Below the pieces are notes generated by a model. The model made no database searches. It saw nothing but the letters and a program-made list of their open reading frames with translations, and had not been told where the DNA came from. From sequence record PQ850625.1: DNA of 46,496 nucleotides; one strand, 5' to 3'. This document shows positions 3,929-45,234 of the stretch, one piece after another. Position numbers and translations under genes: made by a program. The stretch comes from Escherichia phage SandraMuster_Bas78. Position 1 is the stretch's first letter. Each line of letters begins with the position of its first letter.

Positions 3929-4089
3929 TGGCACTATTCTGGTCGTTCTGGATTCCACTTAATTTTATGTTCTGGTGGGCTATGGCTGCCGGAGTGAATG
4001 AACCAAGCAGGATACATTTCATGGTTGGCTCATTTTTCGCTGTGGTAACTGGTATTGTGCCATGCTTGTTGTATCAATATTTCAAATAG
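3928..4089 (+). CDS. small hydrophobic membrane protein (53 aa)
   Basis: ATG at 3928 overlapping previous stop; translation MALFWSFWIPLNFMFWWAMAAG... strongly hydrophobic. Confidence 0.3.
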   Translation: MALFWSFWIPLNFMFWWAMAAGVNEPSRIHFMVGSFFAVVTGIVPCLLYQYFK

Positions 4090-4099
4090 AGGTGGAGTG

Positions 4100-4348
4100 A
4101 TGATAGGGATAATTCTTACTCTTATCGTTACGGCGTTCTTTGTTTATATCCTGATAAGACATCAGCTTGTTTATATTGCCAGAGGAAGATTCATAAACTA
4201 CTTCTATACAGAAGACCATAATGGATATGCAGCCGGCAAGATATTCCATGAGTCGCTACCAAGCTACGATGAGATGCTGTGGAAATTCTGGGTGTGGCCT
4301 CTGTCAAAATTCTATCCGGCGTACAGAAATCGAAATCGCAATAAGTGA
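4100..4348 (+). CDS. small membrane protein
   Basis: ATG at 4100 preceded by GAGGTGGAGTG; N-terminal TM helix IGIILTLIVTAFFVYILI. Confidence 0.4.
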   Translation: MIGIILTLIVTAFFVYILIRHQLVYIARGRFINYFYTEDHNGYAAGKIFHESLPSYDEMLWKFWVWPLSKFYPAYRNRNRNK

Positions 4349-4355
4349 CCATGCT

Positions 4356-4386
4356 ATAATCCCTCCATCGTGAGGGATTTTTTATT
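4356..4386 (+). terminator. hairpin plus T-run immediately upstream of portal gene
   Basis: ATCCCTCCATCGTGAGGGAT followed by TTTTTTATT. Confidence 0.4.
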
Positions 4387-4394
4387 GGTGACAT

Positions 4395-5807
4395 ATGTCC
4401 AAAATTGATGCATTAAACGCTTATATACGCGACCGCGTGGCGAACAATAACCGGGCGATTCAGCAGCAAAGGCTTTGTGCTGGCGGGAAGAATCTGGACC
4501 AGAAACGTGAGTTCATGTGGAAGGAGCTTGGCTACCCGCAGGAAATAACCGCCGAGATGTTCCGCTATGCATACGAGCGACATCCAGCCGCAGCCGCTGG
4601 CATTAACCGTATTATCAATAAATGCTGGCAGAAATATCCTGAAGTGGTCGAAGATGGCGAGGATGATAAGAACTCAACGCCGTGGGAGTTGTCCATCAAC
4701 GATATGATGAAGCGTGCCTATCCGTTCATCAAAGAGGCCGACAAGCGCAACGCCATCAACAGATACTCCGCTGTTATCCTGCAAATCCGCGATGGTCGCC
4801 AGTGGAGTGAGCCGGTAGACATCACCAAAACCCGCCGCATTAAAGATAAATCCATTGTTCGCTTTATCCCAGTATGGGAAGAGCAACTCTGCGTCAGCGC
4901 ATGGAATAACGATGAAACAAGTGAAGACTACGGCATGCCTGAGATGTACGAATATCAGGAAAGCGCCGTAGAGGATTTCGATAGCGACGGCAAGCCTGAG
5001 CGTTCCGTGCAGATTCATCCTGATCGCATTATCATTCTGGCAGAGGGTAGCTTCGATGGCAGTATGTTCAGTGGCATCCCGATGCTACGTGCTGGCTACA
5101 ACAGCCTTATCGACATGGCTAAGGTTTCCGGTAGTTCAGCAGAAGGCTTCCTGAAGAATGCCAGCCGTCAACTGGCTGTTAACTACACGAAGGACAACGT
5201 AACGCCAGCAAGCCTTGCACAGTCAATGGGTGTATCTCAGGATGAGCTTATTGACATCATGAATGACAATATCGAGATGCTGAATTCTGGCATTGACGCT
5301 GCACTATTTAGCATGGGCGCCGAGACTCAGGTGTTATCCGTAACGCCAGCTGACCCGAAACCAACATGGGAAGTGGCTGCCAACCAGTTCGCTGCATCAA
5401 TGGCGCTTCCGTTCACCGTCATTTTCGGGCAGCAAACCGGACGCCTTGCGAGTGATGAAGACAAGATGCAGGAGGCGATGACTGCCAAGCAGCGCCGAGA
5501 AACATGGGTGGATTATGTTATCTCAATGTTCGTTGAGCGCATGATTCAGTTCGGCATCGTCGATAAAGCACCGGCAAATGGCTACAAGGTTAAGTGGGAC
5601 GACCTGCTTGCTCCATCAGAGCTGGATAAGGCGGAGTTGCTGTCTAAGCTCGCCACTGCGAACAAGTCGTTCTTTGATGCTGGTCAATCTGCGTTGCTTA
5701 CCGTCGATGAGGCTCGCGGCATGGTTGGTATGGAGCCGATTGAACTTGATGAAAGTTATCGCGAAGACACGCCACCGGAAGATGAAAATGAAGATACTCC
5801 GGTTTAA
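4395..5807 (+). CDS. portal protein
   Basis: 470 aa ORF between terminase and head morphogenesis genes, acidic C-terminal tail ([14 protein letters not shown]); size and synteny typical of siphovirus portal. Confidence 0.75.
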
Positions 5808-13873: not shown

Positions 13874-15753
<1,880 letters not shown>

Positions 15754-15755
15754 TA

Positions 15756-16826
15756 ATGGAAAAGATTATTTTTACCAAAGACCTGGTAGCCAACTCCGCA
15801 GTGGTGGCTGACCAGTGGAAACATCTGACCATCGACCGCAAGGTGTTCTGCAATGCAGAAGCTGAACTGGCGAAAACATACGGTGTTAACGCCACCGCAC
15901 TGGTAACGAAAGATTACTGGCGCGACGTGGATAACGTCACCACCCGCGTTTTCCGCAACGAAGCTGGTCAGGACATGATGGCTGACCTGATGGGCATCGC
16001 GGCAAACATCAACATCGGAAAGACTGTGGCAATCAGCCGCATTGCTTCCGATGCTGGCAAGGTAGTCCGCACTCTGTCTGGTCAGGAGCCGGAAGATTTG
16101 GATAAAACTCGCTACGATTACACTGGCGATGTGATCCCAATCTTCAAAACTGGCTACAGCCGAGAATGGCGCGAGCTGCTGGGTATGCAGTCTGAAGGCT
16201 TCGACCCACTGCTGGACGATCAGGCCAACGTCACCTTTAACCTGCGTTCCGACATGGCGCAGTATCTGCTGACCGGCGACCAGACTCTGAACGTGAACGG
16301 CGTTTACACTGGCTATGGTATCACCAACCACCCGAACACTGTTCAGGTTAACCTGAATGCTTCCGGCGGCCTTAATATCGACCTGCAAACTGCAACGCCA
16401 GACGAAATCGTGACCTTCTTCAATCAGGATTTCCAGGCTATTCTGGATGCGCAGAACGTATTTGAGCAGGTGACTCTGTGGGTTTCTCCGGCAGTGCGTC
16501 GTAGCTTCATGCGTCCGTATTCTGATGCGGCAGGCTTCAAAGGCGGCACTGTTGAGCAGTACATCACGCAGTTTGGCAATGGTCGCATCGGTAAGATTGG
16601 CACCAACTTCCTGCTGACTGGTAACCATTTCGTTGGCTACGTTCGCAACGACATGTACATCCGTCCGCGTGTTGCTCAGCCAGTTTCCACCTACGCGGCA
16701 GCTCGTGCCAACCCGCACGATAACTTTAACTTCCTCGTGTGGTCTGCTTTTGGTTTGCAGATTCGCAAGGACGCCACTGGCAAGTCCAGAGTGTTCAACG
16801 GCTACGGTACGCAAACTCCGGTGTAA
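15756..16826 (+). CDS. major capsid protein
   Basis: 356 aa ORF at the end of the head operon, followed immediately by strong terminator; typical position and size. Confidence 0.65.
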   Translation: MEKIIFTKDLVANSAVVADQWKHLTIDRKVFCNAEAELAKTYGVNATALVTKDYWRDVDNVTTRVFRNEAGQDMMADLMGIAANINIGKTVAISRIASDAGKVVRTLSGQEPEDLDKTRYDYTGDVIPIFKTGYSREWRELLGMQSEGFDPLLDDQANVTFNLRSDMAQYLLTGDQTLNVNGVYTGYGITNHPNTVQVNLNASGGLNIDLQTATPDEIVTFFNQDFQAILDAQNVFEQVTLWVSPAVRRSFMRPYSDAAGFKGGTVEQYITQFGNGRIGKIGTNFLLTGNHFVGYVRNDMYIRPRVAQPVSTYAAARANPHDNFNFLVWSAFGLQIRKDATGKSRVFNGYGTQTPV

Positions 16827-16829
16827 TAA

Positions 16830-16856
16830 AAAAAGGGGCGAAAGCCCCTTTATGAA
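16830..16856 (+). terminator. rho-independent terminator after capsid gene
   Basis: AAAAAAGGGGCGAAAGCCCCTTTAT. Confidence 0.65.
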
Positions 16857-16869
16857 TTTGAGGTGAATA

Positions 16870-17067
16870 ATGGCTAAATACGAAGTGATCGCTCGCGGAA
16901 TCTTTGTTAAAGAGAAGGGCAAGATTCGTGAATTGCAGCTTGGCGAGGTGATTACCGAGCCAGACGAGCATCTGCTACCAAAACTGCGCGTTATGCCAGA
17001 ACTGGAAAAGACTTTCGAAGTCGCAACCCCGCAAGAAAAGACGACAAAGAAAAAGAAAGCAGAGTAA
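16870..17067 (+). CDS. hypothetical small protein with Lys-rich tail
   Basis: Track ORF with AGGTGAATAATG start context. Confidence 0.4.
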   Translation: MAKYEVIARGIFVKEKGKIRELQLGEVITEPDEHLLPKLRVMPELEKTFEVATPQEKTTKKKKAE

Positions 17068-17071
17068 ACTG

Positions 17072-17097
17072 AACCCGCATAATGCGGGTTTTTTATT
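17072..17097 (+). terminator. rho-independent terminator
   Basis: ACCCGCATAATGCGGGTTTTTTATT. Confidence 0.65.
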
Positions 17098-17124
17098 GGG
17101 GATTCCATGGATGCAAAATAAAAG

Positions 17125-17150
17125 AAAAGCCCCATGACGGGGCTTTTGAT
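17125..17150 (-). terminator. bidirectional hairpin terminator ending the minus-strand MTase/clamp operon
   Basis: AAAAGCCCCATGACGGGGCTTTT, A-run and T-run on both sides. Confidence 0.6.
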
Positions 17151-17152
17151 TG

Positions 17153-17692
17153 CTACAGACGCATCGGCATAACAACAATCTTAGCAGTCTCGCCAGATGG
17201 CGCATTAAGACAGCAAACTGCGGCATTTGTGTTTCCATTAAGTTCAAATTTGATACAACTGAATTTAGGATTAAACAGCTTCGCCACTTTCTCAACGTCA
17301 ACCAGATATCCAGCATTGAAGCCAATTTCCTCTGCTGGCAAGGTCTGCTTCGGAATGACGCGATCAATATCAGGGAATCGCCCGTCAATCTCTTCACAGA
17401 TACCAGCACCAACCATAACGCCAGCTTCATCATGATACGTTGCAATTTTCGACTTTGTATCAATGATGGCGTGGTCATAGCGTTTTGTTGGTGACTTGCC
17501 AATCTTGATAATCACATTTTCTGTAAGATTATTATCATGGTTTCCACCAATAAATGCGCGATGACCGTCAGTTGATGCAATACGACCATCAGGCATAAAG
17601 CAAATGCCATTCAGGTAATACCGCACATCGTTGCGCGCCTGAAATATTAATGCTGATTCAAGTAATAGTTTGCCGATTTTTAGTTTCATCAC
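17153..17692 (-). CDS. truncated beta sliding clamp (DnaN) homolog, domains II-III only
   Basis: Translation contains DVRYYLNG, TDGHR, DGRFPD, EIGFN and C-terminal VVMPMRL in the same order as conserved blocks of bacterial DnaN; only 179 aa; start overlaps upstream ORF stop (TGATG). Confidence 0.7.
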   Translation of the reverse strand: MMKLKIGKLLLESALIFQARNDVRYYLNGICFMPDGRIASTDGHRAFIGGNHDNNLTENVIIKIGKSPTKRYDHAIIDTKSKIATYHDEAGVMVGAGICEEIDGRFPDIDRVIPKQTLPAEEIGFNAGYLVDVEKVAKLFNPKFSCIKFELNGNTNAAVCCLNAPSGETAKIVVMPMRL

Positions 17693-17862
17693 TTCACCTT
17701 AATCATATGCTGTTTTGCAACCTTCAGGCACTCCTCAAAAATGCCACCCTTCTTTGCGCTCTGATTGCGCTTGTAATACTGAACTGCCGCATCAATTGCC
17801 ATCTGGTCGATTTCAGGCAGTTTGGTGCGTAGTTGTTTTTCAATGAATTGTTCTGGTGTCAT
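17689..17862 (-). CDS. hypothetical small protein (57 aa), translationally coupled
   Basis: Minus-strand ATG overlaps MTase stop (TAATG) and its stop overlaps the DnaN-like start; below track cutoff. Confidence 0.4.
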   Translation of the reverse strand: MTPEQFIEKQLRTKLPEIDQMAIDAAVQYYKRNQSAKKGGIFEECLKVAKQHMIKVK

Positions 17863-18662
17863 TAAACGGACCTCATGAATGCTTTAATGAATTCTGCTGC
17901 GACTTGTGGAACTATGGCATTGCCATAACCGCGCAATCGTCCCACTCTTGCGGATACCCCATGAGTTGCCTCGCAAAATCCGCCTGGTATGACTCTAGTT
18001 TCCTTATCTGCTCCATGGTTGGGTTTCCATGAATCCCATAAACATGAAGCCACATCTGGCGATAAAGAGTATCGTTCCTGAATTTTCCGTCCTTTCTGTA
18101 AAATGTCTTGCTGAGATCCCCGTAATCCTTCCATCCTCGCGCCGTTGGTGTCGCCCATCCTCGCGCCAAAGATGATTCTTTTCCTTTCCTGTGGAGAGCC
18201 GACGCTGCAAGCTGGCAATACTGACGCCCCGCAGGCGTAGCCTTTGTCTTCCAGGTTAAGGAATACAAAATCGAGCCAGTGCTTCCCAATTGCTGCTGCA
18301 ACCTGCTCTCCAAACAGCAATTCAGGCTTGCACTCTCTGATGAGCCTGAGAAATGCTGGGGCAAGGTGTCGATCGTCGTCAAATCCGAGAGACTTACCGG
18401 CAACGCTAAACGGCTGGCAAGGTGGTGATCCTGTCCAGAGTCGAGTGCTTTCTGGTATTCCTGCCAGCTGGAGTGCAATGGGCCACCCTCCGATTCCGGC
18501 AAAGAAGTGACACTGTGTAAATCCTTCCAGGTCTGAAGGGGTGACTTCGGTGATTGATCGTTCATCGACATATCCGTAAGGAATTAGTTTATTGTTAATT
18601 AATTCACGCAGCCATGCCGCTGCGCCCTTGTCCCACTCATTGTAATAGTGGACCATCATCAC
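17862..18662 (-). CDS. DNA (cytosine-5) methyltransferase
   Basis: C5-MTase motifs FAGIGG (motif I), PPCQPFS (motif IV, catalytic Cys), GEQV (ENV-like), GNAIVPQVA (motif X). Confidence 0.85.
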   Translation of the reverse strand: MMMVHYYNEWDKGAAAWLRELINNKLIPYGYVDERSITEVTPSDLEGFTQCHFFAGIGGWPIALQLAGIPESTRLWTGSPPCQPFSVAGKSLGFDDDRHLAPAFLRLIRECKPELLFGEQVAAAIGKHWLDFVFLNLEDKGYACGASVLPACSVGSPQERKRIIFGARMGDTNGARMEGLRGSQQDILQKGRKIQERYSLSPDVASCLWDSWKPNHGADKETRVIPGGFCEATHGVSARVGRLRGYGNAIVPQVAAEFIKAFMRSV

Positions 18663-19468
18663 ATCTTCTCCAGAATTGCCATCACCTCGTGAATATCAGC
18701 AACAGGAATCTGGATAAACTCCTCATTCTCTGCCACTACATGACCAGCAGGAAGAATAACGTGGTCAGCTGGCTTCAGTAACTCAATCAGTCGGTCTACT
18801 GGCTTAATCTTTTTCGACTTAAGCACCTTCGCCGTTACCTTATCCTTGCCTTGCGCCTTCGCTTCTTCGACTGCCTCGTCGATAACTTTAACCGCATCAT
18901 CGCCATGTTCGCGAGTTACTGCTACGGCATTTGCATAGCTGATTTGCCCTGCACTGATTCGCGCTTTTACTTCGGCTGGCACATCACCCAGTGACAGGTG
19001 CATCTGCACGTCAGAAACTGAGCGCCCTACCTTCTTGGCGATTTCCTCGTTGGTCCAGCCAAAACCCTTCAGTCGCGTGTAAGCCTTTGCGCGTTCAAAC
19101 GGGTCAAGCTGCTTACCCTGACTGGACGACACCATGAAGGCGATTTTATCTGCTTCGCCTCCTGTGAAATCCTTGCACTCAATACGAACAATTGGTGCGC
19201 CACGCTCAATGGCACGCAACGCTCCGAGATAGCGATGCTGACCATCAAGAATGCGGATTCCCTTCTCGTCTGGAATAACTGTTAATGCTGGCAATGGCTG
19301 ACCTGACTCCCAGCACTGCGCGAAATACTCCACATGCTGCTCATCTGCTTCGCGGATGTTGTATCCTGGTTCCAGATAGATTTGCTCAACTGGCACGAGA
19401 TATGTCTTGTTTACCGCGATTCCGTTGCGCGTTTCTTTGTCTGAATAGATTTTGCTGAGTGTTTTCAT
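18659..19468 (-). CDS. ParB-like nuclease-domain protein with HTH
   Basis: ILDGQHRYLGALRA matches the ParB N-terminal domain signature; central HTH-like segment WTNEEIAKKVGRSVSDVQMHL; ATGA overlap with MTase. Confidence 0.7.
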   Translation of the reverse strand: MKTLSKIYSDKETRNGIAVNKTYLVPVEQIYLEPGYNIREADEQHVEYFAQCWESGQPLPALTVIPDEKGIRILDGQHRYLGALRAIERGAPIVRIECKDFTGGEADKIAFMVSSSQGKQLDPFERAKAYTRLKGFGWTNEEIAKKVGRSVSDVQMHLSLGDVPAEVKARISAGQISYANAVAVTREHGDDAVKVIDEAVEEAKAQGKDKVTAKVLKSKKIKPVDRLIELLKPADHVILPAGHVVAENEEFIQIPVADIHEVMAILEKM

Positions 19469-19827
19469 TGTTTCTTTCCTAATGCTTTCTTGATAGATTC
19501 TTCAGCTAACAGCAATTCTTCTGGGTATTGTTCATTCCAGTTTTGTTTGTATGCTTTGTTAAGCATTTTTTGCAGAGCTTCAAGCAACTCAGGTGCCGCC
19601 GCCATTAAATTAAAATCATGCTCAACACTGCCATCAATCTCCCAATGCATCCCGTTGTATTTGGCACCCTTACTAGAGAAGGCGATGTTTCTGTCATCGT
19701 CATAGTGACAACCCGGCGTGTCATCAGCTCTACAAGACGGGTAAACCGCTGCGCAACCACCGCGAATATCTGCAACCCACGGACCGGGCGTGCCTTTAAA
19801 TTCTTTCATCTCCATCACCTCTAACAT
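19465..19827 (-). CDS. hypothetical protein, first gene of ParB/MTase operon
   Basis: Track ORF; stop overlaps ParB-like start. Confidence 0.5.
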   Translation of the reverse strand: MLEVMEMKEFKGTPGPWVADIRGGCAAVYPSCRADDTPGCHYDDDRNIAFSSKGAKYNGMHWEIDGSVEHDFNLMAAAPELLEALQKMLNKAYKQNWNEQYPEELLLAEESIKKALGKKQ

Positions 19828-19836
19828 TTATTGTTG

Positions 19837-19883
19837 TTTCTACGTCACTAACTATAAACGCCTCATCAATCTACGTCAACAGG
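19837..19883 (+). promoter_or_regulatory. regulatory region with two direct copies of the TCTACGTCA motif
   Basis: TTTCTACGTCA and AATCTACGTCAACAGG upstream of plus-strand operon starting 19927. Confidence 0.4.
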
Positions 19884-19926: not shown

Positions 19927-20046
19927 ATGGGTTCAACCAATTCGCCGTCTCGTTCACGCGCCACTGGCAATACAAAAACTGGCGGCAAAGCTGGCGCAGT
20001 GAAGCCAAACGGTTCCACCCGTTCACCATCGCGCGGTAAAAAATAA
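19927..20046 (+). CDS. small basic Ser/Lys/Arg-rich protein (39 aa)
   Basis: ATG preceded by ACAGGAGA; translation MGSTNSPSRSRATGNTKTGGKAGAVKPNGSTRSPSRGKK; stop overlaps next start (TAATG). Confidence 0.3.
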   Translation: MGSTNSPSRSRATGNTKTGGKAGAVKPNGSTRSPSRGKK

Positions 20047-20486
20047 TGTTCTGCGCAGATATTGCCATCATGATCATGTATGTGCTGGGTTTTGCCTGCA
20101 CGGGCATGGTTGCGTTTCTGGTGTTCATTCCGGCAATGGCGATGTCTGTGTATCTTGGATGGGTGCTTGCTGATTCATTTCCCGCCGAATATCTGTATTA
20201 CCTTGCGCAGTCTATGGTCTGGCTATTCCCGGCTATTGCACTGCGCAAAAGTACAAAAATGGCGCTCTGCGTGCTGACGATGAGCCTTTACGAATGGCTG
20301 GTAGCGATAGAGTCATTCGTATGGGAATTTATCACGCCTGTAGAAACGCCGCTTCATGCGCAGTACGCATTTATTATTATCGGCATCCATCTGTTCATCC
20401 TTTCCATCACTTTTAAATGGGGCGGCGAAATTGGACATTATTCTTGGCGTGGTCGCCATTGTTTTTTCGCTGATTCAAGTCTATAA
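20046..20486 (+). CDS. multi-pass membrane protein
   Basis: Four or more hydrophobic segments in 146 aa. Confidence 0.5.
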   Translation: MFCADIAIMIMYVLGFACTGMVAFLVFIPAMAMSVYLGWVLADSFPAEYLYYLAQSMVWLFPAIALRKSTKMALCVLTMSLYEWLVAIESFVWEFITPVETPLHAQYAFIIIGIHLFILSITFKWGGEIGHYSWRGRHCFFADSSL

Positions 20487-20518
20487 GTGCTGGAAACATA
20501 TCATCAGCGAGACACGCA

Positions 20519-20803
20519 ATGAACGAAACACTAAGGCAGGCAGCAGAGCAAGTTATAAGCGGGACGACAGGACAGGTGATTGACAAGGCTGGATATGCCT
20601 CCATTGGTACTGGTATTGGACTGAAAGTTGCAGAGCAAACGCCTGTCACGCAGTCTTATTTTGAGGCTATGATTCCACACAGTCTGACGGAGTGGGCGGC
20701 AGTAGCGTCAATCCTTGGCGCTCTGTCTCTGGTAATAAAGAACCTGTTTGAAATGTGGTGGAAAGTCCGGGAGTCAAAGAGAAATGACAGCACCAACACC
20801 TGA
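20519..20803 (+). CDS. hypothetical protein with C-terminal TM segment
   Basis: Track ORF; hydrophobic stretch WAAVASILGALSLVI. Confidence 0.45.
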   Translation: MNETLRQAAEQVISGTTGQVIDKAGYASIGTGIGLKVAEQTPVTQSYFEAMIPHSLTEWAAVASILGALSLVIKNLFEMWWKVRESKRNDSTNT

Positions 20804-34512: not shown

Positions 34513-34998
34513 TTAGAAGGGTATTGAATCATCGAAGTCTATCGGATGCTCATTGCCTCCTTGTATGCTTTGTTGTTTTTGCTGTTGTTGTTGCTGTTGC
34601 GATTGTTGGCCTGATTGCTGTCGTGGTTGCTGCTGACTGGAATCATCACGTTTACCACCAAGCATCTGCATAACGCCGCCCACCTGTGGAATAACAATCT
34701 CAGTGGTGTATCGGTCTACGCCATTGCTGTCAGTCCACTTACGAGTGCGTAGCTGACCTTCGATATAAACCTGCGATCCTTTGCGAAGGTATTCTCCTGC
34801 AACTTCTGCAAGTTTCCCGAAGATGACAACGCGATGCCATTCAGTTTGCTCTTTCTTTTCTCCTGTTTGCTTGTCCTTCCACTGTTCAGATGTTGCAACA
34901 GAAAGATTGGCAATTGCAGAGCCTGATGCTGAATATTTAACTTCAGGGTCGTTGCCGAGAGTGCCGACAATAATTACTTTATTTACGCCGCGTGCCAT
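34513..34998 (-). CDS. ssb: single-stranded DNA-binding protein
   Basis: OB-fold N-terminal region typical of bacterial/phage SSB, Gln-rich linker, acidic C-terminal tip DFDDSIPF. Confidence 0.93.
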
Positions 34999-35001
34999 TT
35001 A

Positions 35002-36057
35002 TTAAAATCCTTCAATTGGAGTTGGTTTGTGTTCTGTTTTTTCTTCCTGCGGTTCTGGCTGCTGTGGTTGCGGTTTAGCCAGTTTTGCAGGATTGAAATT
35101 ATCCTGCGGAGTTATTACCACAGGAGATAATTGCTCATCATTGATAAAAGACTCAATGCGATCATATTCAGCGGCAGAAGCAGCCAGAGAAGGCCAGATT
35201 GCGCGAATTTTATCTTTCAGGTTATCAGGTATTGATTTTGCTTCTTCCTTCAGGCCTTCCATGCCTTTTGCTGCAGAAAGCTGAAGTCTTGAGCGCCATG
35301 ACTCAAACTCTTCGTCAACTTTAACTCCAGAGTCCACCCATTTGATGAGTCCGCGACCATGCGCCTCGCCAATGTATCCATGACGAACACTTTCACGACC
35401 AGACTCAAAGAAGATTGGGCGTAGTTCTTCTGGTAATTTGGTGAACTCCTGGATTTTTCCTCCATCGTGCATCATCATGCTCACGGTCATCTCGAACATG
35501 AAATCTTTCTCGCACACTGGCTGCAAACCAAGAGACACAGGTTCCTTCGGGTTTGCGAAATCAGTTTTCTGACGGGCGCGAAGGCATACAATGATATGCA
35601 TATTGCTTTGCAGCATGGCGTTCATGAACTTCTTGTGTTCAGCTTTGGCGCGCTTCCAGTCAGCCATCTTTTTACCGTTAAGCAGCGGCTTTTCAGCAAT
35701 CTCCGTGCAACTGCCTTCACCTTCCCATTCATGCGAACCTGAATCAATAACAAGAACCTTAACGCCGGCAGCCTGAAACTCTTCAATGGCCTGACGGTAA
35801 CGGGCCGGGCTGAATGGAGCATACATATCAGCGTGCAGGAATTTGCCATCAAGGATGTTTGAGTACAGGCGACCGCGACCGTTTTCAGTATCAAGGAATC
35901 CGATTTCTTCTGGTGAATCAACCATCCCGCGAGCCAGCTTAAGTGCGCTATATGTTTTGCCGCTACCTGACTGGCCTGAAATGCCGATGACCACGCGAGA
36001 ACCTGAACGCTCTGCTGGTTTAATATTGAGAATACCCATTTGCATTACCTCACTCAA
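35002..36057 (-). CDS. RecA-fold ATPase, Sak4-like (AAA_24) recombination protein
   Basis: Walker A GISGQSGSGKT near N-terminus; adjacent to SSB and exonuclease; long Pro/Glu/Gln-rich C-terminal extension. Confidence 0.55.
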   Translation of the reverse strand: MSEVMQMGILNIKPAERSGSRVVIGISGQSGSGKTYSALKLARGMVDSPEEIGFLDTENGRGRLYSNILDGKFLHADMYAPFSPARYRQAIEEFQAAGVKVLVIDSGSHEWEGEGSCTEIAEKPLLNGKKMADWKRAKAEHKKFMNAMLQSNMHIIVCLRARQKTDFANPKEPVSLGLQPVCEKDFMFEMTVSMMMHDGGKIQEFTKLPEELRPIFFESGRESVRHGYIGEAHGRGLIKWVDSGVKVDEEFESWRSRLQLSAAKGMEGLKEEAKSIPDNLKDKIRAIWPSLAASAAEYDRIESFINDEQLSPVVITPQDNFNPAKLAKPQPQQPEPQEEKTEHKPTPIEGF

Positions 36058-36247
36058 ATTCTACAAAATCACCACCAACCATTTCGACGATAATGAATCC
36101 AGATTCATCATCATATGTTGCCTGCCATATAGCTCCAGTTTCGTCGCTTATGTTAAAGGTACCACCAAAAAAGTCAGCGCTATACCACTCATCTTCTTTA
36201 AATCTTTTGCTTGTTGAGCTTGCACAAAATAATTTCATTTGCATCAC
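36050..36247 (-). CDS. hypothetical protein
   Basis: Track ORF between exonuclease and ATPase genes. Confidence 0.4.
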   Translation of the reverse strand: MMQMKLFCASSTSKRFKEDEWYSADFFGGTFNISDETGAIWQATYDDESGFIIVEMVGGDFVEFE

Positions 36248-36255
36248 CTCACTAA

Positions 36256-37200
36256 TTATAAATTAAACTGTTTTTTGAACCATTCAGGCGTTTCCATTTC
36301 TATGACAGGATTACCCATTGAATAACCGGGCCACGAATTGGCTTTTTTGCACGCCTTGTAAATTTCCATAGCGCCATGCAACTGAATTCGACCGATGCGT
36401 AATTGCTCTTCAGTCAAGCGAATTAACGCAGGAATAAATGGTGCTTTCTTTTCCTGAACGAGAAGATTAACAGAGCGTGGCGCATGACCATATGCCGCAA
36501 CAAACATGTCGTGCTGCATCGCCATTTTCATAAAGTACCCAAGTCTCGCAGCATGACGGAAAAACTCTTCTGGCTTGGCGCTCACCGCTGTTTTGTAGTC
36601 GATGATGTCGCCACCTTTGGTAAGGCAGTCAAAGCGAACTTTTGCCTTCTCTCCGTTAAGTTCACCTAGAATTGACACTTCAGCATAAGCACCAGCGAGA
36701 AGACTGCTGTAATAGCTGTTTGCGTGGATTACAGCACGCATTTGCTGAATAGCGTCATAATCACCACCTTCCAGCATTTGCTTTCCTACAGCAGCTTTTT
36801 CAGCCTCTTCACGGATGACATCGTAAATTTTCACTGGCTCGCCAGTCGCCTGGATGATTTTGATCACCTCAGCTTTCGACTTTCCTGAAAGTCCTTTGAT
36901 GCCTCGTTCTTTTGCCCATGAGTTCATATCACTTACAGTAACAAGCAGGTCATCACCAAAATCTTCTTTGGTTGGCATTCGTGCATATTCAGCATCAAAA
37001 CGCTCTGGTTCAAGCAACGCAGTATGGCTACCTGTACCGAATATAAGAGCTTTTGATTGCTCATCCTCTTCGTCTTTGTATCGCCATGCTGCTGGGCATC
37101 TGTCAAGTATATTCCATAATCCAGAACCATTAATGTGCTCTGTGTCAGCATGATAATCCTGATTGCTTAATTCATTGTTGAAATAAACTCTCATCATCAC
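36256..37200 (-). CDS. PD-(D/E)XK family exonuclease (RecB/Cas4/YqaJ-like)
   Basis: C-terminal GGDIIDYKT (D...D/ExK core) and recombination-module context. Confidence 0.55.
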   Translation of the reverse strand: MMMRVYFNNELSNQDYHADTEHINGSGLWNILDRCPAAWRYKDEEDEQSKALIFGTGSHTALLEPERFDAEYARMPTKEDFGDDLLVTVSDMNSWAKERGIKGLSGKSKAEVIKIIQATGEPVKIYDVIREEAEKAAVGKQMLEGGDYDAIQQMRAVIHANSYYSSLLAGAYAEVSILGELNGEKAKVRFDCLTKGGDIIDYKTAVSAKPEEFFRHAARLGYFMKMAMQHDMFVAAYGHAPRSVNLLVQEKKAPFIPALIRLTEEQLRIGRIQLHGAMEIYKACKKANSWPGYSMGNPVIEMETPEWFKKQFNL

Positions 37201-37823
37201 TCTCCGTGGTTACAGAATTCTTTATGCATCTTTTCTCTGAATTTCATCACAGACAACCTCGCTCTCTCAATATCATTGAATAACCCAAGATGGTATCTTT
37301 TCCCGTTAACATCACAGTAAGCCTGCCACTTTTTAACCTGTTTTTGCCAATATACACCTTTAACTCCTGATGTGTTATTTTTTGGTTTTTTAGCGTTATA
37401 CTGGTTCTGCATATTTGTTGCGATTCTTAAGTTGCAAATCCTGTTATCGTCACGCACGCAGTTAATGTGATCAATTTGACCTTCAGGCCAGAAACCATAA
37501 TAAATCAACCATGCCAAGCGATGCGCGTAGTATCTTTTATTATTTATGCTTATCTCTATGTATCCGTTATGTTTTTTCCTGCCAGCGACACTACCCTTTC
37601 TTATACCTCCACCCGTCTTATTTCTAATGAAAACCCCCGTTTCAGGGTTGTAATTTAAGCTATCCAAAACAACATCACGTGGTATTCTTTTTCTTCCTCC
37701 TATGGTGTTTGACTCTGCACTTCCCTGAGCAAAATCTTGCTTTTGCAGTTCCGATAAACTCATTTCCACAAACCTCGCACTTCTTAACGGTGATAGCCAT
37801 TTCTTATCCTCTATTGTAATCAT
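37197..37823 (-). CDS. HNH endonuclease with AP2 domain
   Basis: HRLAWLIYYGFWPEGQIDHINCVRDDNRICNLR and SGVKGVYW...KWQA; paralog of 11693..12205; 5' end lies in 131 bp repeat shared with gene at 40224..40997. Confidence 0.7.
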   Translation of the reverse strand: MITIEDKKWLSPLRSARFVEMSLSELQKQDFAQGSAESNTIGGRKRIPRDVVLDSLNYNPETGVFIRNKTGGGIRKGSVAGRKKHNGYIEISINNKRYYAHRLAWLIYYGFWPEGQIDHINCVRDDNRICNLRIATNMQNQYNAKKPKNNTSGVKGVYWQKQVKKWQAYCDVNGKRYHLGLFNDIERARLSVMKFREKMHKEFCNHGE

Positions 37824-37868
37824 TTACCGTTACATTGCAAGTAACTTTTATTTGTTACTAACGATACA

Positions 37869-38309
37869 TTAATCTACGTCATCCAGCAAGCCAAAATAGA
37901 AAAGTGTGGCTTTTTTTAGTTCATCAAGACCGTAAGCGATGGCTGCATAATGACCAAGCCTGCACATCTCTGTTAGAACTGCTGATTGATCCTTGCTCAC
38001 TCTGCTCTTACTTTTGTCACGGCGCTTTGCCTCAATCATTCCGCAGCAGTGGTTCGCACCCGGAGTCATTATTACGTTATCGCCTATTCCAGGCTTAACC
38101 CCCATCTTCTGGCGCTTCAGTACGAACTGGACGCGGCTGGATGTTCCTGTTTCATTCGGGACGTGAAACCATAGCACATCAGGGAAACAGTGTTGCATCC
38201 ATGTTCCATAACCCATCTGGTCAGTCTCCTCTTTTGGGCATTCGCCGCGATAACCGCTATCAAATACCCATATACCGCTATCAAGCTGCTTCACTTTGTT
38301 CTCCTGCAA
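37869..38309 (-). CDS. VRR-NUC-like nuclease
   Basis: GDNVIMTPG...GMIEAKRRDKSKSRVSKDQ consistent with a D...E.K...Q VRR-NUC core; immediately downstream of helicase, a common pairing. Confidence 0.5.
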   Translation of the reverse strand: MQENKVKQLDSGIWVFDSGYRGECPKEETDQMGYGTWMQHCFPDVLWFHVPNETGTSSRVQFVLKRQKMGVKPGIGDNVIMTPGANHCCGMIEAKRRDKSKSRVSKDQSAVLTEMCRLGHYAAIAYGLDELKKATLFYFGLLDDVD

Positions 38310-40215
38310 AATCTTTTCTATGGATTATGTCGCGACCTTTATCATTAATGCGATGAGTGATGCGTTTTGGCGCTTTAATCAATCCAGCATACATCATGAA
38401 CTGCTTAGCATTCTGGCATTTCAGGATTTTCCCCGCCATTGACTTATCATCAAGGTGAGGAAAAATAGCCTTTGCCTTGAACATGTTTTTCATGTGAGTC
38501 GCACCGCCATATGGGTAGAAAACTTCGTTAGCCCAGCCTTCTTTGCCATCACAACGATTAATCCAGTAGCGATACAAAATACCTTCTCCATCCTTTGTTA
38601 GCTGGACTTTGAAATCAATAACATCAGCCCACTCATTATCGGTATACGCACGCTCATTCAGCGCCGCATTCGGGTCGCGCAACACGTGATCGCAATGCCG
38701 GCAATAACGCGCGGTAGGGTCATTTTTAGTCCCGCAGCCATCATCAAAAATACGGATTCCGTGCTTATCAAAACCGCAACGGATGTAACTGAAAAACTCT
38801 TCGCAACGACCATCTGGAGATAGTGGGTCTTTTCCTATGCAACGGCGCGCATATGGGCTGTTCATTGTTCCGCACTTAGGACACGGAACCTGTTCACCAC
38901 TGCGTTTTGAACGTTGTGCTTCAGCCTCTTCCAGAATCGGGTCTTCATACAGTTGACCAAGCTCAAACATCGTTCCTGAGAAATCAAGGACCAGATGGTC
39001 TTCTTTATGATACCCGGCGTCAATTTGCTCTTTCTTCAGCAGGCGCATACCGCGACCAAGCAACTGAACAAGAAGGGTGAGTGACATTATTTTTCGTAAT
39101 ATCACGCTTGTATCCCAAAGCGGGATATTGACGCCAGTCGTCAAACAACCAATCTGGAAAACATATTTAATCTTGCCAGTGTATGCGTCTTTTAACGCCT
39201 TGCGTCTGGCTTTCTGTCCCATATCCTCGGTGACGATAGCGTAACTTCCTTCGGGTAAATATTTAGATGCCTCCTGACAGTGTTTTTTACCTGCGCATGT
39301 AATTAGTACGCCATTTCTGTTTTTTGTCAGCTCCATAACCTTGAGCATGATTTTCTGCGTGAGTGTCCCTTGCTCAAGTATTTCTTTCTGCATCTGCTTG
39401 AGTTGCTCGGCAGTAAAGTCTTGTGTACCGTCAACATCTGAACCATGGAAGTTATGCAGGTCATATTTCAAATCATCAACATCATGAAGACCAAAGATTG
39501 TTGGCACAACAAAACCGCGATCTACCATGTACTTTGTATCAATGTTTATTATTTCATTTTTCCAGTACGCACCTTTCATTGATTCAGTACCACGGAATGG
39601 GCTGCCGGTGAATCCAATTGTTATCATTTCATGCCCATATCTTGCCTTGCAGCGCCTATTAAGTTCAGTAAGTATTGCGCCATATTGTGTTGTTGGATTA
39701 TCACTAATAATATCCTGCCATGGAGCTTGATGGGACTCATCGATCAGGCAAAATCTTGGGGTAAAATCACTCAATCCACCTTTCTTAACGTCACCGTTTG
39801 ATTCATCTTTTTTATCAAAAAGTGCGTTCGCGATTGTTCCTTCAGTACCGCATATAATAGGGTATGCTGTACTTTTCCTGCCAAGAGATGCGCTATAAAG
39901 AGAATTTTTTACACCGCACTCCCACATCATCTCAGCATTCTGCTCAGCTATCTCCCCCTGTCTTGAAATTACAAGCCCATCCCATCCCATATCCTGAAAT
40001 CTACTGCAAAGCATTGAAATCATCACTGTCTTTCCTGATGAAACCGACGCTGTAACATAGCTTGGCTCAGGTTTCTTTCCAAAATTACGAATAACCTCAG
40101 CGCACTTTGCGTAAACAAGCCATTGGTAATCATATGGCTCTATGGAGCCTAGTTTTATTGATTTCTTTAAGTTACCTATATCAATTTCTGAAATCATCTT
40201 GTCTATTTTGTGCAT
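38281..40215 (-). CDS. DExH-box superfamily 2 DNA helicase with C-terminal zinc ribbons
   Basis: Motif I SSGKT, motif II CLIDESH, and C-terminal CPKCG...CRHCD cysteine pairs. Confidence 0.85.
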   Translation of the reverse strand: MHKIDKMISEIDIGNLKKSIKLGSIEPYDYQWLVYAKCAEVIRNFGKKPEPSYVTASVSSGKTVMISMLCSRFQDMGWDGLVISRQGEIAEQNAEMMWECGVKNSLYSASLGRKSTAYPIICGTEGTIANALFDKKDESNGDVKKGGLSDFTPRFCLIDESHQAPWQDIISDNPTTQYGAILTELNRRCKARYGHEMITIGFTGSPFRGTESMKGAYWKNEIINIDTKYMVDRGFVVPTIFGLHDVDDLKYDLHNFHGSDVDGTQDFTAEQLKQMQKEILEQGTLTQKIMLKVMELTKNRNGVLITCAGKKHCQEASKYLPEGSYAIVTEDMGQKARRKALKDAYTGKIKYVFQIGCLTTGVNIPLWDTSVILRKIMSLTLLVQLLGRGMRLLKKEQIDAGYHKEDHLVLDFSGTMFELGQLYEDPILEEAEAQRSKRSGEQVPCPKCGTMNSPYARRCIGKDPLSPDGRCEEFFSYIRCGFDKHGIRIFDDGCGTKNDPTARYCRHCDHVLRDPNAALNERAYTDNEWADVIDFKVQLTKDGEGILYRYWINRCDGKEGWANEVFYPYGGATHMKNMFKAKAIFPHLDDKSMAGKILKCQNAKQFMMYAGLIKAPKRITHRINDKGRDIIHRKDFAGEQSEAA

Positions 40216-40223
40216 TTCATCAC

Positions 40224-40997
40224 CTATGGCATGTCAGGCCAATAAGAGTTGCTTTTAGATCTGTTTTCACTTGGTGCAAGTAATTGTAAGTTATGCCAGC
40301 AGTGAAGGCCGCAAACCAATTTACTATTTATTGGCACTATGTGATCAACTTGCATACCAAGAACGCCAGCCATCTCATAAACCTTTTCAATTAAAACCCT
40401 TTCATGTTCAAACCATGATGGTATCGCCCGTCTTTTAAGATACTTATATTTACGCTGATGATATCTAACAACACCATTGTTTTTCTGTCTCCACTGTTTT
40501 GACTTCTCGTTGTGCTTTTCCTTGTTTTCATTGTAATACTTCTTTGATTTTGCGTTTATCTTGTTCTTATTTGCTGCGTAATTACCTTTCTTGAACTCTG
40601 ATTGGCACTTCTTACATTCAGGCCTAAGACCATCAAGTGATGATTTGTTTTTATTGAAGTTTTCTTCATTTGCATCAAGAACTGAGTTGCATTTAGAGCA
40701 TACTTTCCTTCCATCAACAAGATATCTCAGCCTTTTACCTTTGTTTCCATCGCATGATTTACAATGAGATTTTAAACCAAGCCTCATCTTCTTATCTGAG
40801 TAGAAGTAATCACTTGTTGCAGGAAGCATTAAATTGCATCTTGAGCATTTCTTTTTTGTCCCTGTGCTTGCGCAACCTGCACTTTCCTGAGCAACATTTT
40901 GCTTTTGCAGTTCCGATAAACTCATTTCCGCAAACCTCGCACTTCTTAACGGTGATAGCCATTTCTTGTCCTCTATTGTAACGATTAATTGTTTCAT
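40224..40997 (-). CDS. HNH endonuclease with N-terminal zinc-ribbon repeats
   Basis: C-terminal QVDHIVPI...CGLHCWHNLQLLAPSEN (HNH) and multiple CxxC pairs upstream; N-terminus shares repeat with 37197..37823. Confidence 0.65.
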   Translation of the reverse strand: MKQLIVTIEDKKWLSPLRSARFAEMSLSELQKQNVAQESAGCASTGTKKKCSRCNLMLPATSDYFYSDKKMRLGLKSHCKSCDGNKGKRLRYLVDGRKVCSKCNSVLDANEENFNKNKSSLDGLRPECKKCQSEFKKGNYAANKNKINAKSKKYYNENKEKHNEKSKQWRQKNNGVVRYHQRKYKYLKRRAIPSWFEHERVLIEKVYEMAGVLGMQVDHIVPINSKLVCGLHCWHNLQLLAPSENRSKSNSYWPDMP

Positions 40998-41069
40998 TGC
41001 AAGTAACGATTGATTGTTTCATGTGAGTAAATTACAATGATTCTACATCATCGTCAACAGGAAGATTTT

Positions 41070-42023
41070 ATGAGATACGACTGGAAAGATATTGAGCCAA
41101 AAATGCTTGGCAATTGGCAAGCTGCCATCATGTCTATCGTCAATGTGGATAGCAGAGTTTTCAATGGCAAGCACCAGCCATGCCCTCATTGCATGGGGGT
41201 TGACCGGTTCCGTTGGGATAATCACTTCGAAACAAAAGGCGATGGCGGCGCAATCTGCAATCAGTGCGGTTCCGGCAGCGGCATGAATTGGCTGATGAAA
41301 CTCTCCGGAATGAGCTTTCCTGAAGCGCTGGAGGCACTTGGTGGATTCCTGAATATGCACCCGCGTGAAAAGCTGGAGGCAATCAGGAAAGAGCTACCGA
41401 AGATAAATCACAGCGATGACTTCATCACCGAGCAGGAAGTCGCAGCAATCATGGCTAAAACGACTCGTGTCGCGATGAATGAGTGGACTTTGATAAATGG
41501 TATTGGTTGCGACGTTAACGTCACCAGAGGCAAATCTGGAGAACTTATTGCGGTTGAGATGATGCGAGCTGACACAATGAAACTGTGCAACGTGGCATTC
41601 ATTGGCATGGATGGTGATTCAATCAGAACGTTTTTCCGCGCAGGATACAACAAGGACTCAGCCATCAACGGCAAACTCACGCGCGGCGCGATAAGCCCAA
41701 TCGGAGAAGACAACGGGAAGTTCATTTACCTGGTATCTGATTATGCCGATGCGTGGAAGTGCCATTACTTCACTGGCGCGCATGTCTGGTGCTGCTGGTC
41801 GCCGGAAAACATGTGGGAAGTGGTGCGCTCTGTTAGCAATGAGATGAAGTCACGGTTACGCTGCATAGTTAATTATAAATTTGACGAACTTTGCGCTGCG
41901 GAAAACGCAGGGATTCCGGTGATGCTTCCTGATGATGCCGACACTATCAGGATGGCAAAGAGAATCAGGAGAAAGATTTATGACGCTGGCGAGTTGATAG
42001 AGAAAATGTCAGTTAGAAGATAA
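41070..42023 (+). CDS. putative DNA primase (zinc-ribbon plus Toprim-like region)
   Basis: ATG at 41070 with CAGGAAG RBS inside track ORF 41037..42023; CPHCMGVDRFRWD...CNQCGSGSGM resembles the zinc-binding domain of P4/T7-type primases. Confidence 0.5.
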   Translation: MRYDWKDIEPKMLGNWQAAIMSIVNVDSRVFNGKHQPCPHCMGVDRFRWDNHFETKGDGGAICNQCGSGSGMNWLMKLSGMSFPEALEALGGFLNMHPREKLEAIRKELPKINHSDDFITEQEVAAIMAKTTRVAMNEWTLINGIGCDVNVTRGKSGELIAVEMMRADTMKLCNVAFIGMDGDSIRTFFRAGYNKDSAINGKLTRGAISPIGEDNGKFIYLVSDYADAWKCHYFTGAHVWCCWSPENMWEVVRSVSNEMKSRLRCIVNYKFDELCAAENAGIPVMLPDDADTIRMAKRIRRKIYDAGELIEKMSVRR

Positions 42024-42025
42024 AA

Positions 42026-42052
42026 GAAACCCTCCGACTGGAGGGTTTTTGT
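42026..42052. terminator. bidirectional terminator
   Basis: AAACCCTCCGACTGGAGGGTTTTTGTT. Confidence 0.6.
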
Positions 42053-42357
42053 TATGCTTTGATGTTAACTTTTATTGCGAACACTTCCACCGGGTCAGGA
42101 CCGAAATGTGGGTGGGTGATGGTCTTAACCGTCCATCCATCGTATGGGATATCAATACGCCTGGATTTATCGTCCTTCTTTGGATATCCTTTTGTGATAA
42201 TTAACCTTTCGTACTTCCTTCCAATCTGTCCGCTATCTTTAAAGTTAATAAGGCGCTTCTTCCAGTAGTCATTAAAAAGGCGATACTCTTCCGTTTTATC
42301 TCCGCGAATCATGGCATCGAAGTATTCACCTTTGACGGCAAGTTGCAGGTTAGCCAT
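42052..42357 (-). CDS. possible ASCH/PUA-like domain protein
   Basis: Internal ATG (MANLQLAVKGEYFDAMIRGDKTEEYRL) of track ORF 42052..42390; pattern resembles ASCH domain N-terminus; low confidence. Confidence 0.35.
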   Translation of the reverse strand: MANLQLAVKGEYFDAMIRGDKTEEYRLFNDYWKKRLINFKDSGQIGRKYERLIITKGYPKKDDKSRRIDIPYDGWTVKTITHPHFGPDPVEVFAIKVNIKA

Positions 42358-42613
42358 TATTTCCCTCCAGAATCCAAACTGAATTACCAATACGACTGTT
42401 ATTTAAATCCTTTGACACGCGGCCATCCTTACAAAGAGAAATCAGAACCTTCCGTAACTTCGCTGCTGTCCATTCATCATCAGGAAATTCATTCACCATT
42501 GATAGACGCAAACTCCACGTAGCCACTGAGAACTTACGAAAAATTCCAAGTTTCTCCTCCTCAATGGATTTTCTCTTTCTCATCACATATAAAACCTTAT
42601 CCTTCACATCCAT
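42350..42613 (-). CDS. hypothetical protein
   Basis: Track ORF. Confidence 0.4.
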   Translation of the reverse strand: MDVKDKVLYVMRKRKSIEEEKLGIFRKFSVATWSLRLSMVNEFPDDEWTAAKLRKVLISLCKDGRVSKDLNNSRIGNSVWILEGNNG

Positions 42614-42623
42614 TTCCTTACCC

Positions 42624-42815
42624 TCACTTAATCATCATCTTTGAAATATCAACGTGACCAACACAAAATCTGTGCCAGTAATCATCAAGCATGTGGTAAT
42701 TAGAGCGAATCCATACTTTGTTAATCCGGCTCCAGAAAAACCACGTCGAATAACCATGCGGCCTGAAATGCCATAAACCTTCTGAGCGACAAATTTCGCC
42801 TGATATTGTTCTCAT
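42624..42815 (-). CDS. hypothetical protein
   Basis: Track ORF, start overlaps upstream stop. Confidence 0.35.
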   Translation of the reverse strand: MRTISGEICRSEGLWHFRPHGYSTWFFWSRINKVWIRSNYHMLDDYWHRFCVGHVDISKMMIK

Positions 42816-45048: not shown

Positions 45049-45234
45049 ATGAACAAAGAAAGCACGTACAGCATCGACCAGATGAAGTTGTTCAGCGATA
45101 TATGCATGGCATTGTCACAACAGGTTCCAAGTCTACCTGCTGATATGCGCTCAAATGCCATCATTGATGCGGCAAACATGATTTGTGAGGCATATGCTAT
45201 GACTGAAGATGAATATAAGGCATCGAAGAAATGA
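45049..45234 (+). CDS. hypothetical protein
   Basis: Track ORF with GAGGGTGAAGAG upstream. Confidence 0.45.
   Translation: MNKESTYSIDQMKLFSDICMALSQQVPSLPADMRSNAIIDAANMICEAYAMTEDEYKASKK

Follow-up and report, generated by a model that had tools for sequence, protein, structure and literature searches.

A gene for part of a sliding clamp

The window described here is the whole 46,496-nucleotide stretch of Escherichia phage SandraMuster_Bas78 (sequence record PQ850625.1), a complete siphophage genome of ~46.5 kb. On its minus strand, at positions 17153..17692, lies an open reading frame (ORF) of 179 codons, counted from a GTG codon at 17692 and closed by a stop codon at 17153-17155, whose product is a short, phage-encoded homolog of the bacterial beta sliding clamp, DnaN. 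We refer to this gene and its product as the clamp fragment. The beta clamp is the hub that gives bacterial polymerases, repair enzymes and replication regulators access to DNA, and the pocket on which these clients dock is an antibiotic target. In our best reading, what the phage gene encodes is a stand-alone version of this client-binding cleft. A 4-kb query around the gene is 95-99% identical to Escherichia phages Bas77, Bas79 and Bas80 of the BASEL collection, whose cluster in that collection belongs mainly to the genus Skatevirus (PMC11990801).

The probable start codon, as judged from its sequence context, is the ATG at 17689, which would yield a protein of 178 amino acids. This ATG directly follows the GTG, overlaps by one base the TGA stop codon of an upstream gene for a 57-amino-acid protein (TGATG), and gives the length found among relatives, as evident by the 537-nucleotide annotation of Bas77_0042 and by the 178 amino acids typical of most close homologs. 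Residue numbers throughout this report follow the 179-residue version that begins at the GTG. Upstream of the gene, in-frame stop codons occur from four codons away onward, and neither domain I nor early domain III sequence was found anywhere else in the window. The short length is therefore not an artifact of annotation, as a preliminary description of this locus had already proposed.

The homology of the phage protein to DnaN is solid. A phmmer search of all Protein Data Bank (PDB) sequences matched E. coli-type beta clamps with E values of 1e-11 to 1e-10, and a hidden Markov model (HMM) built from 138 family members matched E. coli DnaN at 8.7e-34. The sole match in NCBIfam is dnaN (TIGR00663; 36.9 bits, below the cut-off of 137.65), and the sole Pfam matches are to the DnaN central and C-terminal domains (PF02768 at 17.2 and PF02767 at 15.3, both below the threshold of 27), with no match to the DnaN domain PF00712. 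Thus, the profile search suggested in the preliminary description returned DnaN families only, though below their cut-offs, and the short motifs quoted there all align to their expected positions in DnaN. An AlphaFold2 monomer model computed on the 138-sequence alignment has a predicted local distance difference test (pLDDT) score of 96.8 and a predicted template-modelling score (pTM) of 0.91, and the fold that it predicts is that of a beta clamp. At 179 amino acids, the protein falls short of the three complete clamp domains (~366 amino acids) that score above the curated cut-offs for DnaN.

The architecture amounts to ~1.5 clamp domains, with domain II (minus its second helix) joined through the interdomain linker to the C-terminal half of domain III. 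The protein had been described as a two-domain equivalent of DnaN domains II-III, but domains II and III of E. coli beta together span ~244 residues versus 179 here, and the first half of domain III (DnaN ~255-312; ~58 residues, which is one whole half-domain) is absent. Phage residues 1-115 correspond to DnaN 129-250, which comprise domain II and the DGRFPDxxRVxPK linker, and phage residues 122-179 form one beta-alpha-beta-beta-beta unit that matches the latter half of domain III (DnaN 316-366). The assignment of this last unit is evident by its BLOSUM62 local alignment scores, which reach 68 for this half of domain III, compared with 27 for the preceding half and ~20 for each of the other half-domains. 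The second domain of the family HMM agrees with this assignment in aligning with DnaN 313-365. In addition, a nine-residue loop, GKSPTKRYD, takes the place of the second domain II helix (E. coli RKGVIELMRMLD), and the AlphaFold2 model contains only two long helices (residues 8-17 and 127-140) in place of the two channel-lining helices that DnaN has in each domain. Across the family, the segment that replaces this helix is 9-10 residues long in 116 of the 138 members, and the number of residues after the equivalent of P242 is 65-80 in nearly all of them, versus 124 in E. coli.

Each of these parts can be placed on the minus strand of the window and contributes to the client-docking pocket, domain II doing so through its first half. 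The domain II-like region (residues 2-102, aligned to DnaN 129-237) occupies positions 17387..17689; according to the model it runs through a strand, helix 8-17 and then seven strands, with the helix-replacing loop at residues 65-73, and it holds pocket residues R24, L27, T41, G43, H44 and R45. The interdomain linker DGRFPDIDRVIPK (residues 103-121, aligned to DnaN 238-250; positions 17330..17386) provides P107, R111 and V112 and joins the last half-domain directly, the junction being the site of the ~58-residue deletion. The C-terminal unit (residues 122-179; positions 17156..17329), as delimited by BLOSUM62 score, HMM and AlphaFold2 model, has helix 127-140 and strands 158-163 and 169-174. 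It supplies N126, Y129, V173, M175, P176, M177 and R178, and the protein ends in VVMPMRL.

Subsite I of the E. coli pocket is formed by R152, L155, T172, G174, H175, R176, L177, P242, R246, V247, V360 and M362, and subsite II by H175, N320, Y323, V344, M362, P363, M364 and R365 (PMC11139829, a 2024 review). The phage protein agrees with E. coli beta at 17 of these 19 pocket residues and differs at L177, which is replaced by A46, and V344, which is replaced by T155. At the level of sequence, the cleft between domains II and III that receives the clamp-binding motif (CBM) of client proteins is preserved, and the central proposal of the preliminary description, a DnaN homolog that is shortened at its N-terminus but retains the cleft for partner binding, holds. 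The dimer interface of DnaN involves I78, R103 and F106 in domain I and I272, L273, E298 and E304 in domain III (PMC11139829). None of these ring-closing residues has a phage equivalent, as all of them lie in the missing segments. With domain I lost, and domain III reduced to its C-terminal half, the phage protein cannot assemble a canonical head-to-tail ring.

The same division is apparent when the whole family is considered. Among the 138 members used for the conservation count, which are only ~27-50% identical to the window protein, twelve positions are conserved at 90% or more: D22, R24, Y26, L27, G29, T41, G43, H44, P107, Y129, M175 and P176. Nine of the twelve belong to the pocket (hypergeometric P = 4e-8), and the remaining three are located inside the same 150-157 loop, while most other positions of the family are less than 50% conserved. 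On this comparison of sequences, the family has kept the putative CBM-binding surface and dropped the parts that close the ring.

Distribution, naming and genomic setting of the family

Short clamps of this kind are abundant in phages. A HMMER scan of 1.84 billion representative proteins returned 1796 matches at E < 1e-3; the best 150 of these are almost all 170-215 amino acids long and align end to end, and the same length range and end-to-end alignment hold for more than 130 representatives of 50%-identity clusters. Rather than a pseudogene, the short form constitutes a large and stable family of phage proteins, and the concern that this copy might be a decayed piece of a longer gene therefore falls away. 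With tblastn, the clamp fragment was found in 279 phage records, and the hosts of the matching phages include Salmonella, Escherichia, Klebsiella, Shigella, Serratia, Yersinia, Morganella, Proteus, Vibrio, Shewanella, Pseudoalteromonas, Acinetobacter, Pseudomonas and Burkholderia. A Foldseek search of BFVD likewise recovered many viral relatives of 163-250 amino acids, with query-normalised template-modelling (TM) scores that are mostly 0.65-0.89 among the 15 best. The window protein belongs to PHROG 3007 (E 5.8e-61; residues 2-179 against profile positions 1-186 of 190) and by its length, phage origin and end-to-end alignment to the short phage homologs of the DNA polymerase III (polIII) beta subunit; it is 32% identical to gp15 of Burkholderia phage Bcep781.

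Phage DnaN-like proteins in BFVD form a graded series of sizes, with full-length forms of 345-392 amino acids, an intermediate class of ~237-266 amino acids and short forms of 163-215 amino acids. The intermediate class, which includes proteins of Rhodococcus phage REQ2 (266 amino acids), Escherichia phage Seurat (246) and BcepNazgul (237), possibly represents true two-domain clamps.

The preliminary description had treated the gene as absent from standard accounts, and this claim does not stand, since the gene is annotated as a polIII beta subunit or beta clamp in many of the 279 records. Existing names include ‘DNA polymerase III beta subunit’, ‘putative beta-clamp protein’ (Serratia phage Eta) and ‘DNA Pol III b subunit fragment’ (Bcep781 gp15). 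A 2011 survey (Kazlauskas and Venclovas, Nucleic Acids Research 39:8291; PMC3201878) described the short phage homologs as ‘the second and third domains’ and regarded them as probably acquired horizontally and dispensable for replication. Short phage clamps are thus already on record, and what is new here is the anatomy of a minimal clamp reduced to its pocket, together with the hypothesis that follows from it.

A second name, ‘RusA-like Holliday junction resolvase’, is that of PHROG 3007 itself and has spread into RefSeq and Pharokka-style annotations (Bas77, Bcep781 and others). The loci involved in this naming include positions 17153-17692 of the window (minus strand), 3977-4558 in Bcep781 (L004) and 20004-20540 in the locus designated L001. 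The clamp fragment gives no Pfam match to the RusA family up to E 10, and it belongs to RusA neither by fold nor by sequence. Moreover, Bcep781 encodes a separate, true RusA (gp22), yet its gp15, which is noted as a polymerase subunit fragment, also bears the RusA label. Because there is no Pfam signal for RusA, the fold is that of a clamp and a distinct RusA exists in Bcep781, the ‘RusA-like’ label is an annotation error that has spread. As a practical point, it is the wrong name for this clamp family and is still being passed on.

The clamp fragment is the last of five minus-strand genes that form an operon. The first gene (19465-19827) encodes a 120-amino-acid protein (phrog_1273), the second (18659-19468) a ParB-like helix-turn-helix (HTH) protein with matches to HTH_ParB and KorB, the third (17862-18662) a C5 cytosine DNA methyltransferase, and the fourth (17689-17862) the 57-amino-acid protein (phrog_4439) whose stop codon overlaps the probable start of the clamp fragment. 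A sigma-70-like promoter match on the same strand (19851..19879; TTGACG-17-TATAGT, 10 of 12 consensus positions) precedes the operon, and the clamp fragment is apparently transcribed from this putative host-type promoter. Six nucleotides past its stop codon there is a hairpin followed by a T-run that resembles an intrinsic terminator (17125..17147, minus strand), and a convergent terminator of the capsid operon is located at 17071-17091 on the plus strand. These two strong hairpins, which are 34 nucleotides apart, separate the capsid operon from that of the clamp fragment. The region also contains a 461-codon ORF (15750-17135, minus strand) that is antisense to the entire major capsid gene (15756-16826, plus strand) and to the next small gene; although unusually long, it has no counterpart in the Bas77 annotation and probably arose by chance.

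In Kagunavirus fBC-Eco01 (locus positions 19962-20483), Dhillonvirus rolling (4007-4519) and Bcep781 (3977-4558), the gene stands alone or nearly so on the opposite strand inside the head-morphogenesis module, and the fBC-Eco01 record has predicted promoter and terminator signals annotated beside it. A small opposite-strand unit between portal, protease, head-morphogenesis or capsid genes recurs in very distant phages, and this placement looks like a conserved insertion of the moron type. In Serratia phage Eta, the clamp fragment is found between a ParB-like gene immediately upstream and a helicase gene, near a primase gene. Among the loci examined, a ParB-like neighbour occurs only in Bas77-type phages and in Serratia phage Eta, which are lytic phages.

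Possible roles of a stand-alone docking pocket

The replication genes of the window are located at 34513-44368 and encode a single-stranded DNA-binding protein (SSB), a Sak4-like AAA_24 ATPase, a PD-(D/E)XK exonuclease, a primase and an endonuclease VII-like protein; two helicases (phrog_16 and DUF3987/phrog_2373) are also encoded by this phage. Neither a DNA polymerase gene nor a clamp-loader gene was seen in the window. With no polymerase of its own, the phage must use that of its host. A family-A polymerase (Pol A) is present in the carriers fBC-Eco01, rolling and Bcep781, and no CBM-like motif was found in any of these three enzymes. We therefore rejected the idea that the clamp fragment is a processivity factor for a phage Pol A. 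Since homologs occur both in phages with Pol A and in the polymerase-less window phage, a host-directed target is favoured.

A pattern scan of all ORFs in the window yielded three candidate CBMs and neither a conserved phage partner nor a convincing phage-encoded motif. The first candidate, QMKLF at the beginning of the ORF at 36050-36247, was rejected because the Shine-Dalgarno spacing and the Bas77 annotation both place the start at MKLF, which leaves the Q untranslated. The second is QMKLF at residues 11-15 of a 61-amino-acid ORF (45049-45234, plus strand), which was rejected as a conserved partner because it occurs in only 13 phage records. This ORF is weakly similar to the gp42 region of phage N15 and does not co-occur with the clamp-fragment family, and its product could itself be a small binder of the host clamp. 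The third, QMHLSL in the ParB-like protein, falls within the HTH domain and is probably part of the recognition helix. The ParB-like protein was also rejected as an obligate partner, given that it is absent from other loci examined, and a link to a defence system was dismissed on the basis that PADLOC returned no matches.

The reading that we favour, tentatively and with a probability of roughly 0.4, is that the protein is a soluble, off-ring competitor that would serve as a decoy for clients of the host clamp. A non-ring receptor of this type, expressed early, would bind host proteins that bear CBMs, and candidate clients are Pol II, Pol IV, Pol V, Hda, MutS, MutL, the delta subunit, and the alpha and epsilon subunits of Pol III. 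By capturing such clients the decoy would compete with the host beta2 ring, and clamp traffic would be rewired in the course of infection. Its action would be the mirror image of that of Gp168 from phage Twort and similar proteins, whose target is the clamp. It might strip mainly the weakly bound clients (translesion polymerases, MutS/MutL and Hda) and spare the avidly bound Pol III holoenzyme, a selectivity that would be needed because the window phage depends on the host polymerase. The possibility of a decoy had been raised in the preliminary description, and it fits the concentration of conserved residues in the pocket.

Several considerations weigh against a decoy function. An indiscriminate sponge for CBMs would also hit Pol III alpha and epsilon, and the selectivity described above is one that we purely infer. 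In bacterial DnaN, too, no part is more conserved than the pocket, and thus the conservation signal in the phage family is partly inherited. The promoter is a consensus match only, and such sites are not above the expectation from shuffled sequence in this region. The isoelectric point (pI) is shifted toward basic values (family median 8.26 and window protein 7.63, versus 5.25 for E. coli beta), and lysines are conserved on the retained helix (K135 in 78% and K138 in 58% of the family). Together, the basic pI and the helix lysines hint at DNA binding and would favour a role as a tether or adaptor. Finally, a literature search found no functional study of the clamp-fragment family, and hence no binding or phenotype data.

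The main rival is an adaptor of this kind, which is possible but on balance doubtful. The cleft would bind the CBM of host Pol III alpha or epsilon, the clamp-loader delta subunit, Pol I or ligase, while another surface would bind phage DNA or the helicase-primase. The protein would then be a clamp stand-in that needs neither ring nor loader and delivers host enzymes to phage forks. A phage without a polymerase must capture that of its host, and the clamp fragment is the only phage protein with a recognisable Pol III interface; moreover, in Serratia phage Eta its gene is adjacent to that of a helicase. The basic family pI and the helix lysines resemble the trend reported for loader-less clamp homologs (PMC3201878), but the window protein itself is near neutral (pI 7.6). 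Furthermore, no second conserved surface is visible, the gene is usually distant from replication genes and alone in the head module, and homologs occur in phages whose Pol A shows no CBM-like motif. To our knowledge, lambda, P4 and similar phages use the host Pol III holoenzyme without any such adaptor. The more specific proposal, that a portable host-clamp docking pocket is placed on the phage DNA or helicase-primase and captures Pol III or other CBM proteins for a polymerase-less phage, seems to us rather unlikely.

An exotic variant of the stand-in idea would have four 1.5-domain subunits form a D2-symmetric ring of 12 half-domains with docking pockets on both faces. More generally, the protein might self-assemble into a clamp of new stoichiometry, in which the orphan half-domains of two copies pair on a true two-fold axis and either two such dimers close a 12-unit ring (a D2 tetramer) or the dimer remains an open arc, in each case serving as a processivity factor. 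The arithmetic of the fold allows this, in that a clamp domain consists of two topologically identical halves and three units in each of four copies would match the 12 units of the beta2 ring. In addition, the strand that opens the C-terminal unit (EEIGFN) is hardly defined in the monomer model, as if it were without a pairing partner, and three of the four sampled lineages encode a family-A polymerase able to use a processivity factor. However, the helix face that in E. coli packs on the now missing helix (L325 and L328) has become small or polar family-wide and carries conserved lysines, which suggests that it is exposed to solvent rather than buried. Of three expected channel helices one is deleted, the window phage encodes neither a clamp loader nor a polymerase that the assembly could serve, and the model of the monomer is fully confident by itself (pLDDT 96.8). 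We consider such assemblies improbable.

Assembly through the canonical head-to-tail interfaces, as a PCNA-like trimer or as mixed rings in which host beta is capped or poisoned, had been proposed alongside the decoy and is less probable by far. The cleft and the C-terminus are retained, and the short E. coli form beta* (see below) reportedly works as a clamp, but both halves of the interface are gone, namely domain I and the helix and strand of domain III with I272, L273 and E298-E304. The remaining ~1.5 domains also fall short of the two complete domains (~230-260 amino acids) and head-to-tail trimer interfaces of PCNA and T4 gp45. That the gene is a functionless remnant of a horizontally acquired host dnaN would accord with the 2011 view of such homologs as probably transferred and dispensable (PMC3201878), but it is scarcely credible given that the same truncated architecture persists down to ~26-30% identity in phages of many host genera and that the pocket residues are nearly invariant throughout. 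The chance that the protein is a RusA-like resolvase is negligible despite the PHROG 3007 label and the same name in many recent phage annotations, as both Pfam and NCBIfam match only DnaN families and the predicted fold is that of a beta clamp.

If a decoy or an adaptor function were borne out, this widespread family would represent a natural minimal docking pocket, and it would reveal viral rewiring of the host clamp network, either by soaking up clients or by borrowing the pocket for recruitment. The question is directly testable, because the close relatives Bas77-80 belong to the BASEL collection, whose phages infect E. coli K-12. The clamp fragment is also small, its model is of very high confidence, and pocket mutants are obvious to design.

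Comparison with known clamps and clamp-targeting proteins

The nearest known protein is DnaN itself (E. coli beta; PDB 1MMI and 2POL), with which the clamp fragment shares the motifs of domain II and of C-terminal domain III as well as 17 of 19 pocket residues. In contrast to the 366-residue bacterial protein, its 179 residues include neither domain I nor the initial half of domain III, domain II is short of one helix (the second), and all known residues of the dimer interface are absent. E. coli is said to make a shorter form as well, beta*, which Skaliter, Paz-Elizur and Livneh reportedly described in 1996 as a UV-inducible DnaN of approximately domains II-III that acts as a clamp. It reportedly begins near the start of domain II and keeps both the cleft and a complete domain III. 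Given that half of domain III and one helix are missing from the phage protein, the assembly mode of beta* would not be available to it.

The short homologs of the 2011 survey, PHROG 3007 and Bcep781 gp15 appear to be of the same kind as the clamp fragment, judging by their length, homology and occurrence in phages. In the survey they were taken to cover domains II and III, whereas here domain III is only half present, and the parts that remain are those that form the pocket.

The herpesvirus proteins UL42, UL44 and BMRF1 have the clamp fold without a closed ring or a loader, and the shift toward basic pI that is reported for such factors is found in the clamp-fragment family too. With regard to a basic DNA-binding face of the UL42/UL44 type, the pI values (7.63 for the window protein and a family median of 8.26) and the conserved K135 and K138 may at most hint at one. 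A cognate virus-encoded polymerase is lacking in the window, and the Pol A enzymes of the three carriers have no CBM-like motif.

Phage proteins that target the host beta clamp are known, as exemplified by Gp168 of Staphylococcus phage Twort (PDB 7EVP) and MuC of phage Mu (PMC12867686). These proteins are unrelated in sequence to the clamp fragment, and they bind the host clamp itself. In contrast, the window protein is a copy of the binding site on the clamp, and it would be expected to bind the clients.

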